From: a virus
Lineage: Duplodnaviria; Heunggongvirae; Uroviricota; Caudoviricetes
Virus record (IMG/VR): IMGVR_UViG_2703718806_000013
Length of the DNA: 16,503 nucleotides
Strand: one strand, 5' to 3'
Part shown: positions 9,001 through 15,000 of the stretch, piece after piece
Numbering within the stretch: the stretch's first letter is position 1
How the letters are laid out: each line of letters opens with the position of its first letter
Made by a program: the position numbers

Positions 9001-12000
9001 GGCTCATTGGTTTGCGGATTTGTTCTTCCAGTTCGCGCCAGCGGTCTACCAGGCGGGCGGTGAATTCAGGGCAAAGCTGTGCGACAACAATGATGCTGTC
9101 GCGTTTGCCTTGTTCGCCTTCAAACAAGTAATGCTCATGTTGAACTTTAAACCCTAAGTTATTGATTTTCTCGGAAACAGCCATTGGCGGTTTCCGGATT
9201 ATGCTTTTGGCAACCAGGCGTTCGATACTACGTTTAACATCTGAATGCTGGCTTCCCACCAGCTCTGCGATCTCAACGCTGGTCATGGATGCTTTGCCGT
9301 TAAAAATTACGGTGTTCACTGCCATCTCCTTACGGATAAATTCTTTTAAGATTCCGCACTTTCGTACTTATTGGTGCCGAACCTTCCTTCAGTTATCCTG
9401 TTGATCCCTATAAACAAAAGAACCAAAGGAGGTTCGACATGAAAGTTCAGGCCGTTGGTTTATTCTGGTTTCGCGATGCGATTCAGTATCATGAGCTCAA
9501 AAATATTTTTACTGATGCTGATGTGCTCTCCGACAGTTACACCGAGTGGAAACACGACGCTGAAAAATTGATTAAGCGTGTCGAAAGAAGCGGGCAACGA
9601 GTTATTAAAGTTGAAGCGGATACAGCCGAGTTCATCGCCTGGTGTACAAGCGAAGGCATTGGAATCAATGCCGAAGGTAGAATGCAGTTCGCATCCTTTA
9701 AGGCTTACCAACAACTTCTCAGCGAACGCTAATGTGATTGGGGCAATCGAAATGGTTGCCCCATCGTATTTAATAGTTATTTTTTCGCTCATATCACCAC
9801 CATCACTTCTCATCCTCTGTGTGCGCTAAGCTTGGGTGTGGGAAAAGCTCCGGTAGATCAGGACGAAATTCATACGCCTGGACTTTCCCATCAACCGCCT
9901 TAACCAGAGACGGAACAAATTCAGGAGAAATTTTTTTCTTCCCATTCAGCCAGTCGCAAATTGTTGACTGCGCGCGACCACAACGCTTTGCCAGAGCAAG
10001 CTGGCTTCCTGCAATATCTACAGCCTTGGCTATACCTTCATTTTTCATATCGACCTCCAGCCTTATGATATTCACTATAGCGATTGAATAAAGCGATTGC
10101 AATGCGCGAAAAAGCGGTTTGTGTATATATCGCTAAGGCGATACACTAAAAGGACAGAAAAAGGAGGACTTATGAGCTTTTCAGACAGGCTACAGTTAGC
10201 TATGACTATCCGAGGATACTCACAGGGAAAACTGGCCAGAGAAGTTGGCATGGCTCAATCGAGCGTCAATAAACTGGTTAATGGTGCCACGGGTTCAAGA
10301 AAAGTTGTGGAAATCGCCAATATCCTGAACGTACGCCCTGAGTGGCTATCATACGGCGTTGGCCCTATGAACTCAGAAGAAAGCACATCCTGCAATCTGA
10401 CACCGCAGGAATCATATCCCCCGCAAGAAAATGATAAGGATATTTTTCGTGTGGAAGTCCTGGATATCGCTGCCAGCGCGGGACCAGGAACATTCCTTGT
10501 TTCAGATTTTGCAGAAACGGTCCATGCTATAGAATTTTCACATGACGCCGCAAGACGTCTGTTCTGTAGCAGGCCAGCAAATATCATAAAGATGATAACA
10601 GTTGATGGCGACAGCATGGCTCCTACTCTGTGTGCAGGAGATCAGGTGTTTGTCGACGTATCCGTCAGAAATTTTGAAACTGACGGTATATATATTTTTA
10701 TTTTTGGGCACACCTTCCATATCAAACGCCTGCAAATGCAAGGGATGCAACTTGCTGTTATATCAGACAATCCGGCCTACAAGGAATGGTTTATAAGTGA
10801 ATCAGCTGAAGAACATCTATTCATAATGGGGAAAGTTCTCATTCATCAGTCAATCCAGTATAACAGGGTCGGATAAGTCAATATCACCGGCAGCTGTATT
10901 GCGCAGCTGCTCTACTTTCCTGTATCTCAACTCCCTACGTATCGTCTCATTTCTCTCATAATCTGTTCTTTGCTGCCCAAAATACATAGCTATAGCGATT
11001 GACATAACCAAACGCCCTGGCTATTGTAAAATTAAAACAACAGGAGGCTCATATGAAGCATGCAGTTAAGGTGATGGATGAAATTGCAGCACAAATACAA
11101 GAAGGCGGCTCGCTGCTTGGAATGATCTATTCCTACATGTCAGAAAACGGAGCAGAAAGTGAGAGGGTTTATAATGCAATCAGATGCCTGATGCGTTCCC
11201 TGCAAAAAACAGAAGAAACTGCATCAATTTTTGCAGAAAAACTATGTGAGGCAAAAGCTATGGTTTCGCATGGTCACTTTTTTGGAAAAATCCGTGCCCA
11301 ACGTGAAGCCTGCGGCTTAACGACCACCGAACTTGCCAAACTGCTTGATCTCGATGAAGAGATCATCCTGCAATGGGAGAGCGGAGAGTTCGAACCGACC
11401 ATCAGCATGCTTATCCCCCTGGCAAACGTCCTTGGGTGCGATCCTCTTTCTTTGCTGGATGAAAAAGATAGCGCGTCTGTTATTCGCGTAAATGTGCCAG
11501 AACCACGGGAAGAAAGTATTGGCGCTCGCATCAAAAGCGTCCGTAAAAACCTGGGATTAACCGAATCTGATCTTGCCCGCATGATTAATACCTACAGCGA
11601 CCCCATAAACGACTGGGAATGCGGCATCCATGAAGTTCCAGCTGCTCAGATAGTACCACTGGCCAGTGCTCTTAATTGTGACCTGATGTGGTTGTTAACG
11701 GGAAAATCAGAAGCAAAGGAGCAGCAACAATGACTGGCAATATCCATGATAAGTATGAAGGCTTATGCCTGACACCGGATTCCTTTGCAAACAATATCCA
11801 TAATTTATTATGCGCAGTTATCGTATTACAAATGTCAGACAACGACGCAATAAAAAGAACAGGTGATGAAGTTCTTGAATTTGCACGTTGCTATGCTGAA
11901 GCAGCAGCTGAAAAAGAACTATCCAGTTAAATAGAACAAGTCATCTCCAGATACTATATTACGGCTTAATCGCCGGGGATTATCACACACTTAATCCACA

Positions 12001-15000
12001 GGAGGTTTTATTATGACTTTTATAAAACATAAGGCATCACACAAAACAGCCTGCCTTATTGCACAACACGGGAAAAATCACATGCATATTGCCTGCTTGT
12101 TTCTGCGTAAAGCATACGGGAGATAATAATGCATCAGAAAACAGCAGAACACGAACAAACCAGAGTATTGCTGACCATCAAAAACGGGAAAGTAATATTA
12201 ATTCGTCATGTTCATGACGATGAATTTGTAGGAAATCTTTCAACATTCCTGTTTATTGCAGAAAAGGCAGGATATGACGTTATTGCACCAGCAGATGAAG
12301 ATGAGGAATAAATTTCATGCACTACGCTGAATTCCAGGCTGAAGCAACAGCCAATGGTATACAAACAGGCAGTATGACTATTGATTATCACGACGCCATA
12401 CGCCGTCTGGATGCTGGAGAATTCGATACTCCTAATGTGCGAGGTTTACGTATCCTTCAGTGTCTCGCGCAAGCTGACGAAGCAGGATTACTGGGAAAAC
12501 TTCCGGTTGAGATGAAGGTTGCCCAGTGGCGATGGTTGTATGTGACGACATTCATCAACGAAGAAGAAGACAAGAACGGCACAATTGATGTCCCGAATGA
12601 ACACGGAACAACAGATCGCGCCGTAATATATAACGGGAAGCATGGAGTTATGACTATATACCCTAGTCCCATTCGGTTTGCCTTACAGCAGTATATTGAA
12701 TGGAATTTAATTCAAACATATGGCGAGGCTGAGGGAATGGGAAGAGCGCTGTTTCTTTATCAGAAAATGCTCACCACTTCCCCTGATAAAGGTTTCATTC
12801 TTTCAGATATAGGTCGAGAAGGGCTTGAACTCCTTCTGGATGAAATGATTAACGACCTGAATACTCATGGTATGCCAGAAGGCCAGTGACACATTAAATA
12901 TTAAGAAGAATATAACTCTTCCGTTTTTTACTAACCGTTTATATGAAAAGCGACCGTGAATTAAGCAGAGTAAAACTGCTTTTAATCCTTGCCACAGTAC
13001 TGACACTAACAGAAATCATTATTCTCTTTATTGCGCTGTCTGTCAGTTAAAAATATCGGGATACCACATACCAATGAGACTGTATTTCACAATAGTAATT
13101 TTACTGGCAATTATCGCATGCATTTACGGATTACTCGTTCCGTTCCTTATATCCATGAAGGATACGAGAGCAGTTATTTCTGGCTTTGCACTGGCGTTTC
13201 TGACCCCGCCCTGCATTTATGCCATTTACAAGGGTCTTTCTTTCACTAAGGATAAAAAATGAAAAAAATTATTTTTGCTTTAGCCATTGTTCTGCCGACC
13301 ATTGGTCTTGTCGGTTGCGATCGCGTTGAGCCCGGTAATGTTGGCATCAAAGTAAATAAACTGGGCGACGATAAAGGCGTCGGTGAGGTGGTCGGTGTTG
13401 GTCGCTACTGGACTGGCTGGAATACTGAAGTTTACATCTTCCCCACCTTCAAGCAAATGAAGACCTACGATGAACCGTTCAGCTTTCAGATGAGTGACGG
13501 CACAACCATCGGCTATCACATCGGTGTGGCCTACAAGGTTGATCCATCCAAAGTTACTACAGTGTTTCAAACCTACCGCAAAGGCGTGGATGACATTACC
13601 GACACTGACCTGCGCCAGAAGATAGCCGACGCACTCAACCGACTGGCCAGCAAAATGACCACCGATAAATTTATCGACGGTGGCAAGTCTGAACTGCTGG
13701 ATTCAGCACTTAAAGATATTCAGGCAGAAATGACCCCCATCGGCATTCAGGTAATGAGCCTCTCTTATGTCGGTAAACCGGAATACCCGCCAACCGTGAT
13801 CGACAGCATTAATGCCAAAGTCACAGCGAACCAGAAAACCCTGCAACGCGAACAGGAAGTAAAACAGCGCGAAGCGGAAGCCAACATGTTGCGCGCGGAA
13901 GCAGCCGGACAGGCTGACGCCATTCGCACAAAAGCCCAGGCCGAAGCCGATGCTATTCGTTTACGCGGTGAAGCTCTGCGCCAGAACCCCGGTGTTATGG
14001 AGCTGGAAGCCATCAATAAATGGAACGGCACACTGCCGCAATACATGACCAGCGGTGCCAATACACCATTTATCCAGGTTAAATAACTTATATGCCCGGC
14101 AGGCCGCCGGGCTAAGGGAAAAGCAGATGAACACCCATAATGCCCAACCGCAAATAATGAACTATGACCCGAATCTGACGTCATGCGGACGCATGGCAAA
14201 ACAAACCGTTCGATTAACTTTCGGGTTATGGGAATACCGCGAAACATTCGAAGTTACTGTCGGCGGCAATCTGACCGGACTGGATGTTATCAGTTGCGCT
14301 ATTGAAAGCCTGTACGCAACACTGCCTTATGAAGAAGTCGAGGATGAGCGCACAGGGGGAACAGATATCATGGCCACCATTAATATTGGCGAACTGATAT
14401 GTCAGGATGAAGACCTGTCCGGAGAGAGCTGGCTTGCTGGAATGCTTGTAGCTGCAGAAATTATCAGTATTGAACCCGCTACAAATATACGGCTCTGAAG
14501 TTCTCGCTATTCAGAGAACAGGAGAAAAAATGTTCGATTTGATTAATCAAGGACAACTGTATACCGACAGTGCCGGTTACCCGGTCAAAATTATTCACTG
14601 CATAAATAACATCGTGTTGTACAGAAGAATGGATGGACGAACACAGTCGGTAAAAATAAACGATTTTAATGAACTGTTTGAACGAATCGATCACCAGGAA
14701 TACCGACAAATTCTGGCAGAAACAGAACAAGAAGCTCATCTGAAAAAATTACGTGCCATGAAAAGGAAGTAAAGAATGAATAAAGCGTTTGAGCTATGGG
14801 TACGCCAGCGTTACGGCAATCGCTATGACCTGACGCGAGATGTTGACGGTTTCTACTGCCGTGAAGTTGTGAAACGAATGTTTGACGTGTGGTGCCACTG
14901 CCGTGGATGAAAATTTTATGAGGTTGGCATGCAGACAATCATCTATCAGATAACCCCCAGCAAATGGTGTACGGAGAGAGTCCTCATTGCATCAACAGGG

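Follow-up and report, generated by a model that had tools for sequence, protein, structure and literature searches.

Shiga toxin (Stx) phages with replication regions unlike that of lambda, and without N, CII and CIII, have already been described (PMC8044961; PMC8951638). Small prophage-borne proteins of the DUF4222 family are also known, namely RgdR (ECs1581), a regulator of motility and of the type III secretion system of the locus of enterocyte effacement (PMC10877973; PMC3378721). RgdR has 99 amino acids (aa), comes from a P4-like cryptic prophage, and carries at residues 20 to 22 an RGD tripeptide that has been linked to activation of type III secretion (PMC3378721). A Pasteurella prophage encodes an HflK/HflC-like SPFH protein, PM0222, that is found in outer-membrane vesicles and is a reported virulence factor (PMC9872710). 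Here we analyse a stretch of 16,503 nucleotides (nt), IMG/VR record IMGVR_UViG_2703718806_000013, referred to as the window, and within it the block of small genes between the repressor gene cI and the excisionase gene xis. The chromosome of Escherichia coli UC4224 (cheese, Italy) matches window positions 10900-15000 at 100%, and the window is identified as the left half of the Stx1a prophage of that strain, which is phiP27-like and not of the lambda type. A sequence-only reading had rated the block as the part of the window likeliest to hide an undescribed system, a candidate anti-phage locus. In that respect ours is a negative result. The block is probably an accessory early-left operon of the ordinary sort, from a well-sequenced family of Stx phages and of a type already known, and no sign of defence was found in it. 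The remaining lead is a pair of membrane protein genes, one encoding an SPFH lipoprotein, for which no functional study was found.

The open reading frame (ORF) listing and the RefSeq annotation place nine coding sequences, all on the plus strand, between cI and xis. They are listed here with the flanking genes and control regions, a tenth small gene, and one doubtful ORF; HTH stands for helix-turn-helix and pI for isoelectric point.

10049-10171, unstranded: cI-cro regulatory gap, OR-like, with two AGCGATTG copies (10079, 10092)
10172-10876, plus: CI-type repressor, HTH_3 and Peptidase_S24 (Pfam; phrog_4; RefSeq annotation)
10877-11052, plus: PL/OL-like control region, with promoter, 13-nt repeat, and AGGAGG
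11053-11733, plus: regulator, 226 aa (Pfam HTH_3 twice; phrog_4836)
11730-11930, plus: acidic protein, 66 aa (phrog_4587)
12013-12126, plus: basic protein, 37 aa, pI 10.3, rich in His and Cys (absent from the RefSeq annotation; AGGAGG Shine-Dalgarno site)
12129-12311, plus: acidic protein, 60 aa (phrog_340)
12317-12889, plus: acidic protein, 190 aa, pI 4.7 (phrog_1515)
12943-13050, plus: doubtful 35-aa ORF within the AT-rich gap of 184 nt; one hydrophobic helix
13074-13262, plus: two-helix membrane protein, 62 aa, partner of the SPFH protein (phrog_1130)
13259-14086, plus: SPFH/Band 7 lipoprotein, 275 aa, with C-terminal coiled coil (Pfam; phrog_200; NCBIfam; PDB)
14127-14498, plus: DUF5406 (PF17400) protein, 123 aa, pI 4.1 (Pfam, 79.1 bits against a threshold of 25)
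14530-14772, plus: DUF4222 protein, 80 aa (Pfam, 56.4 bits against 27)
14776-14910, plus: 44-aa protein (phrog_3871)
14929-15183, plus: excisionase, xisR type (RefSeq annotation)

This is the compact same-strand operon of at least nine short ORFs that the sequence-only reading had described, with the 37-codon gene in addition to the nine annotated ones. All nine annotated genes start with ATG, and recognisable Shine-Dalgarno sites precede most of them. The junctions are tight or overlapping, as had been noticed: neighbouring genes share 4 nt at 11730 and again at 13259, and spacers of 2, 5, 3, and 18 nt separate others; two true gaps, at 11931-12012 (82 nt) and 12890-13073 (184 nt), break this spacing. 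The AT-richness ascribed to the block holds against the genes from Q to replication (44.6% GC in the block versus 52.7%), but not against xis-int (45.5%) or cro-cI (45.0%). GC content is lowest (34 to 40%) in the small genes and in the two gaps. Searches of Pfam, PHROGs, and NCBIfam, which covered ten products, gave no match to N, CIII, Kil, Gam, Bet/RecT/Erf, or Exo for any ORF product, in agreement with the claim that the genes could not be assigned to the lambda families. The description of the genes as unrecognised did not survive, since all nine annotated ORFs fall in existing PHROG families and three of the products carry the Pfam domains SPFH/Band 7, DUF5406, and DUF4222. Near-identical copies of block genes are present in published phage genomes, phiP27 included. 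These results support reading the block as accessory genes in an operon of the early-left type, placed between the repressor and xis-int and without the lambda functions.

The operon appears to have a promoter of its own. A sigma-70-like sequence, TTGACA-17-TATTGT, at 10999-11027 agrees with the consensus at 10 of 12 positions, is the best such site in 6 kb, and ends 26 nt 5' of the first start codon, the ATG at 11053, which has AGGAGG 5 nt in front of it. At 10990-11002, a 13-nt repeat (CTATAGCGATTGA) extends into the -35 hexamer of this promoter. The repeat is found again at 10075-10087 and is common only to the cI-cro gap and the operon promoter; a promoter-like site on the minus strand of the cI-cro gap, from 10102 to 10074, is directed at cro. 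A word of 13 nt shared between the two gaps is long by chance expectation, with only 1 in 1000 shuffles reaching that length. Likewise, AGCGATTG has three plus-strand copies in the 16.5 kb, and every one falls in either the cI-cro gap or the promoter gap. Two heteroimmune phages have repeats of their own in the equivalent two gaps, AATCAAG in Stx2_95 (3 of 3 copies) and GTATCA in Stx1_14040 (5 of 11 copies). The pattern suggests that the block is probably a repressor-controlled operon of the PL type, following the OL/OR logic of lambdoid phages. Because an operator-like repeat that also occurs in the cI-cro region overlaps the operon promoter, repression in the lysogen is predicted, and the analogy that the sequence-only reading drew with lysogen-expressed rexAB and sieB is not supported. 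The shared-operator pattern is in itself a simple sequence test that tells repressed early genes from lysogen-expressed neighbours of a repressor. No convincing plus-strand terminator was found inside the operon or before xis and int, so that read-through into xis-int is likely, and xis is probably the distal part of the early-left transcript. An Rfam scan of 9300-15300 gave no match.

Comparison with 85 related loci by tblastn showed that the block does not travel as a unit. The regulator, the 66-aa gene, the 190-aa gene, and the DUF5406 gene are present or absent independently across these loci, and such independent assortment argues against calling the block a system. In Stx1_14040, a MarR-containing cassette replaces the membrane pair and the DUF5406 gene, with both flanks kept; by this exchange the block is partly a variable cassette, as had been thought worth checking among related Stx prophages. 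Of 5426 complete E. coli genomes, 1207 contain pieces of the block and only 63 contain all of it. The DNA from 11300 to the end of the window is about 95% identical to that of published phiP27-type Stx2a/Stx2d phages. On these comparisons the block is a mosaic of exchangeable early accessory modules and not one system, which is usual where temperate phages carry non-essential early genes.

The suspicion of an anti-phage locus found no backing in PADLOC-DB 2.0, where the matches were generic. Only the HTH domains of cI and of the regulator matched (RmrA, HTH_VI, PDC-M64, and capH, in their N-terminal HTH parts), and the eight other proteins gave none. Neither homology to Red, N, or kil functions nor homology to described defence systems was detected in these searches, which leaves the idea of a defence locus unsupported, though not disproved.

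The genes at 13074-14086 encode what is, from its arrangement, a translationally coupled membrane pair: the stop codon of the 62-aa gene overlaps the start codon of the SPFH gene (ATGA). The SPFH/Band 7 domain (PF01145) scored 108 bits against a gathering threshold of 23.6 and spans profile positions 2-176 of 176. At its N terminus, MKKIIFALAIVLPTIGLVGC, the protein has the lipobox LVGC, which agrees with the [LVI][ASTVI][GAS]C rule, and Cys20 is followed by Asp at position +2. Lipobox-type N termini are kept in SPFH homologues (CDR, CER, CSK, CNK, CDN). In the sorting of E. coli lipoproteins, an Asp after the lipidated Cys leads to retention at the inner membrane, so the SPFH lipoprotein is predicted to lie on the periplasmic face of the inner membrane. 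It is on the periplasmic side, too, that HflK and HflC form a cage around FtsH. The gene is under strong purifying selection, with 179 synonymous versus 35 non-synonymous changes. A profile of six phage SPFH proteins searched against the PDB matched HflC (2.4e-8), HflK (1e-5), prohibitin-2 (7e-5), and QmcA (6e-4). Relatives of the SPFH protein occur in 667 phage records, from temperate and virulent phages, jumbo phages and haloarchaeal viruses included.

The 62-aa partner gave no Pfam match at E values up to 0.1 and is too short for an NfeD/OB-fold domain. Its gene stands directly 5' of the SPFH gene in all close relatives. Directly adjoining pairs are also present in the virulent phage KpCHEMY26 (Schitoviridae), phage Cyrano, the Pseudomonas phage Pacha, and the Vibrio phage CKB-S1, as well as in a P1-like plasmid and in a prophage of UTI89 that is P2-like, and in the virulent phage SSE121 the two-helix gene is one gene upstream of the SPFH gene. 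In total, 8 of the 12 phage or prophage contexts examined have the partner 5' of the SPFH gene. All partners have in common a motif in the loop between the helices, (L/V)P.L(I/V)S(A/S)(K/R)D. No recognisable partner was found in four more distant phages, Clew-1, vB_RY3, Fifi318, and the Staphylococcus Kayvirus MSA6, whose SPFH protein, MbpS, has a membrane helix in place of the lipobox. In the P1-like plasmid pZ1323CEC0011-3, the homologue of the 62-aa partner is an unannotated two-helix ORF of 78 aa (3731-3967) whose end runs into the SPFH start. Here the two genes form an isolated insert flanked by tRNA genes, and dnaB lies downstream. Identity of the pair with upl-plp of phage P1 was considered and is not claimed, the matching records being P1-like variants. 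A literature search on phage SPFH proteins in connection with function, defence, and superinfection yielded genome descriptions and the Pasteurella PM0222 paper, and no functional study of the phage proteins.

The first gene of the operon encodes a regulator of 226 aa. Its N-terminal domain of about 75 aa varies with immunity type, and two XRE-type HTH domains come after it. The HTH part is 83 to 88% identical in two relatives that have a CI of only 34% identity, and the N-terminal domain is unrelated there, which places a mosaic joint at about 11300, inside the regulator gene and at the domain boundary. The label "CII-like" attached to the regulator in PHROGs is a depositor's name only, and no CII homologue was identified by the family searches. 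A sequence search of solved structures covered seven of the products; the regulator matched the HTH domains of the 434 and P22 repressors, the SPFH protein matched HflK, and there were no other matches. The neighbouring 66-aa protein resembles the N-terminal domain of the Stx2_95 allele of the regulator (L001, 3697-4434; 48% identity over 44 aa, E value 5e-9), and by this similarity it is a free-standing copy of that domain. This suggests that it could interfere with the regulator or act as its partner. As a toxin-antitoxin pair, the regulator and the 66-aa protein found no support beyond the generic HTH similarity to antitoxins in NCBIfam.

The 37-aa ORF at 12013-12126 is probably a real gene. 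It is open in 21 alleles, with 24 synonymous versus 19 non-synonymous changes, and is annotated in LC567819, the genome of phage Stx1_14040. It is linked to the 60-aa gene in all but two related loci, one of which is cut at its end. The 60-aa protein weakly resembles C-terminal parts of anti-repressor families and had no PDB relative in the sequence search. A toxin-antitoxin role for these two small proteins was also considered, and no support for it was found. The doubtful 35-codon ORF at 12943-13050 lacks a Shine-Dalgarno site and is near-neutral (8 synonymous versus 19 non-synonymous changes).

A profile search of 1.8 billion proteins returned 117 representatives of the 190-aa family, nearly all of them stand-alone proteins of about 200 aa, and no informative fusions. 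Of the checks that had been proposed for these genes, the Pfam search named the SPFH, DUF5406, and DUF4222 families, and the fold searches covered two proteins: good AlphaFold2 models of the 190-aa and DUF5406 proteins (predicted local distance difference test, pLDDT, of 86 and 83, respectively) had no informative structural relative. No mention of DUF5406 was found in the literature search. One database protein of 175 aa joins a Band 7 segment to a DUF5406 segment. Rather than a natural fusion, this is probably the product of a frameshift or of a gene-calling error that joined the SPFH gene to the neighbouring DUF5406 gene. At the distal end of the block, the 44-aa gene is linked to the DUF4222 gene and xis in many prophages, and O157:H7 prophages that otherwise differ in their early genes also have xisR in company with DUF4222 and the 44-aa gene.

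The explanation that we favour is built on what the sequences show, namely the gene content, the families, the mosaicism, the motifs of promoter and operator, and the conserved pair. The start of transcription is most likely set by the promoter at 10999-11027. In the lysogen, CI on the operator that overlaps the -35 hexamer would block this promoter, and upon induction or infection transcription would pass through about ten small genes into xis and int. Five modules would be expressed in this way: the tandem-HTH regulator with the small paralogue of its N-terminal domain; the nearly always linked basic 37-aa and acidic 60-aa proteins; the acidic 190-aa protein; the translationally coupled membrane pair; and DUF5406, DUF4222 (RgdR family), and the 44-aa protein adjoining xis. 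The short loop of the two-helix protein would face the periplasm, and the SPFH lipoprotein, by analogy with HflK and HflC, may assemble into a ring or cage. Since SPFH relatives occur in strictly virulent phages, a role of the pair in lytic growth is favoured over one in lysogenic conversion. It would act there on an inner-membrane process, most plausibly on the access to, or the activity of, a membrane protease such as FtsH. A wider form of this proposal, in which the pair is a widespread phage membrane module whose HflK/HflC-like cage controls a host protease or gives a shield against superinfection or membrane-targeting immunity, is tentative and, in our estimate, rather unlikely to hold as stated. 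Should FtsH or the integrity of the membrane prove to be its target, the pair would represent a general phage strategy.

Three other explanations have to be weighed against this one. In a narrowed form of the sequence-only reading, part of the block, most plausibly the pair, might be expressed in the lysogen from a promoter of its own as an inner-membrane superinfection-exclusion or abortive-infection module. Exclusion proteins described so far are in many cases lipoproteins or small proteins of the membrane. A 184-nt AT-rich gap with a weak terminator-like hairpin does lie 5' of the pair, the PHROG category of the 62-aa protein is "moron, auxiliary metabolic gene and host takeover," the pair is a stand-alone insert in P1-like plasmids, and the Pasteurella SPFH protein PM0222 is reported to have a virulence phenotype in the lysogen (PMC9872710). 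However, no sigma-70-like plus-strand promoter was found in the gap (12890-13073), PADLOC gave no match, and close homologues stand among the early or middle genes of the strictly virulent KpCHEMY26, SSE121, and Kayvirus phages, where lysogenic conversion is impossible, although virulent phages could still use such proteins to keep competitors out during infection. We regard a lysogen-expressed exclusion module as quite improbable. An equally doubtful idea makes the SPFH lipoprotein a stand-in for CIII, a mimic of HflK/HflC that alters FtsH activity and thereby adjusts how stable a CII-like regulator is and how often lysogeny results. Its closest solved relatives, HflC and HflK, are modulators of FtsH with the same predicted periplasmic location at the inner membrane, and its gene sits in the operon that holds cIII in lambda, in a phage for which Pfam and PHROG show no cIII homologue. 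The similarity to HflK/HflC is remote, though, and is shared with prohibitin and QmcA; the SPFH family is common in virulent phages that make no lysogeny decision; and the regulator's "CII-like" label being a depositor's name, a CII homologue on which such tuning could act was not identified. Somewhat less remote, if still unlikely, is that the acidic DUF5406, 190-aa, 60-aa, and 66-aa proteins are host-takeover or anti-defence inhibitors, non-homologous stand-ins for Gam, Kil, Ral, and CIII. Their early-left position, strong negative charge, small size, and purifying but relaxed selection are in keeping with this, as are their restriction to phages and prophages and the lack of an enzyme-like fold. 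The argument is purely one of position and composition, and no known inhibitor such as Ocr, ArdA, or Gam turned up in the fold searches, which covered two proteins, or in the sequence searches of solved structures. Inhibitors of this kind would be compatible with the accessory-operon explanation and do not exclude it.

The explanation of the block as an ordinary early-left operon, with a lytic role for the pair, also has several points to face. Eight of the block's gene products have no functional assignment, one of them the DUF4222 protein of the RgdR family, and the PADLOC models, which date from 2023, omit newer defence systems. Repression of the operon in the lysogen, in which it would probably differ from rexAB, is read from motifs. 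The gap at 12890-13073 is the most AT-rich part of the block (33.7% GC) and has a weak hairpin with a U-run at about 12905-12930, directly after the stop codon of the 190-aa gene; it could hold an internal terminator and an independent promoter that uncouple the membrane pair from the operon. The stand-alone pair between tRNA genes in P1-like plasmids suggests that it can have its own expression. The presence of the SPFH family in virulent phages weighs against a role limited to the choice between lysis and lysogeny. The phage protein also misses the NCBIfam equivalog cut-offs of its presumed models, with partial matches to HflC (24.9 versus 134.4 bits) and HflK (22.7 versus 159.4 bits), and the effect on FtsH, drawn by analogy, is the most concrete guess about the pair and as yet an unsupported one.

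Outside the block, the window has the following features, all from the RefSeq annotation.

1-1227, minus: stx1B and stx1A
1757-2137, minus: Q-family antiterminator
3451-4851, minus: replicative helicase
5758-6669, minus: replication-initiator-like HTH protein
6887-9319, minus: three Rha/BRO-N genes
9803-10048, minus: cro-like regulator
15217-16503, plus: tyrosine integrase

The end of the integrase gene overlaps a host DUF72 gene. This gene is taken as yecE because yecN, cmoA, and cmoB flank it, and the prophage is taken to be integrated next to yecE. The space between stxA1 and Q (1228-1756, 529 nt) has no annotated gene. This is the position of tRNA genes in many Stx phages; here ARAGORN detected none anywhere in the window. 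The three antirepressor-like Rha/BRO-N genes stand in a row in the early-right operon, with cro on one side and the replication genes on the other, and make up an unusually dense group of such regulators. Between the Rha-family gene and cro lies a 97-aa gene (9439-9732, plus strand; phrog_4753) on the strand opposite to its neighbours. A hairpin of 11 pairs followed by a T-run, at 9739-9763, is directly 3' of it and is the strongest terminator-like structure of the region. The 97-aa gene has no DNA match in the phage collection but was found in a few related viral contigs. Its moron-like layout fits lysogen expression better than does that of the operon flagged by the sequence-only reading.

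The block can be compared with several described systems. The DUF4222 protein is like RgdR in its Pfam family, its small size, and its prophage-borne position near an integrase gene, a likeness taken from family and description, and it differs from RgdR in that no RGD tripeptide is present in the 80-aa product or in a 100-aa version with a TTG start. The membrane pair resembles cellular SPFH-NfeD operons in having, immediately 5' of the SPFH gene and in translational coupling with it, a gene for a small membrane protein; unlike NfeD, the 62-aa partner has no NfeD/OB-fold, and the analogy is one of layout only. With E. coli HflK and HflC (PDB 7vhp, 7wi3), its best-scoring solved relatives, the SPFH protein shares an SPFH domain followed by a coiled coil and the predicted periplasmic side, whereas it is lipid-anchored (LVGC) rather than held by an N-terminal helix and is the product of one gene rather than a member of a heteropair.

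Lambda rexAB is co-transcribed with cI. Like rexAB and sieB, the block adjoins the repressor gene on the same strand, but a 176-nt gap with a separate promoter and an operator-like repeat intervenes here, and the block has no sequence similarity to those genes and no PADLOC match. The lambda PL operon (N, ea/b-region genes, cIII, kil, gam, bet, exo, xis, int) differs in that no homologue of a named lambda gene and no recombination genes were found here, and in that the first gene encodes a tandem-HTH regulator instead of an N-type antiterminator. In common with the block, it lies between the repressor and xis-int on the strand of cI, has its own promoter with a repressor-operator-like repeat, carries many small non-essential genes, and shows mosaic exchange between relatives. 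Close relatives of the block are the left arms of phiP27 and of the LC5678xx Stx2a/Stx2d phages, such as Stx2_95. They differ in the immunity region (cI 34% identical, other operators, and another N-terminal domain of the regulator), in the replication and antirepressor genes, and in the toxin, which is Stx1a here. From the second half of the regulator gene to int, the gene order is the same and the DNA is about 95% identical, and phiP27 has an SPFH protein with 99.6% identity to the one here.

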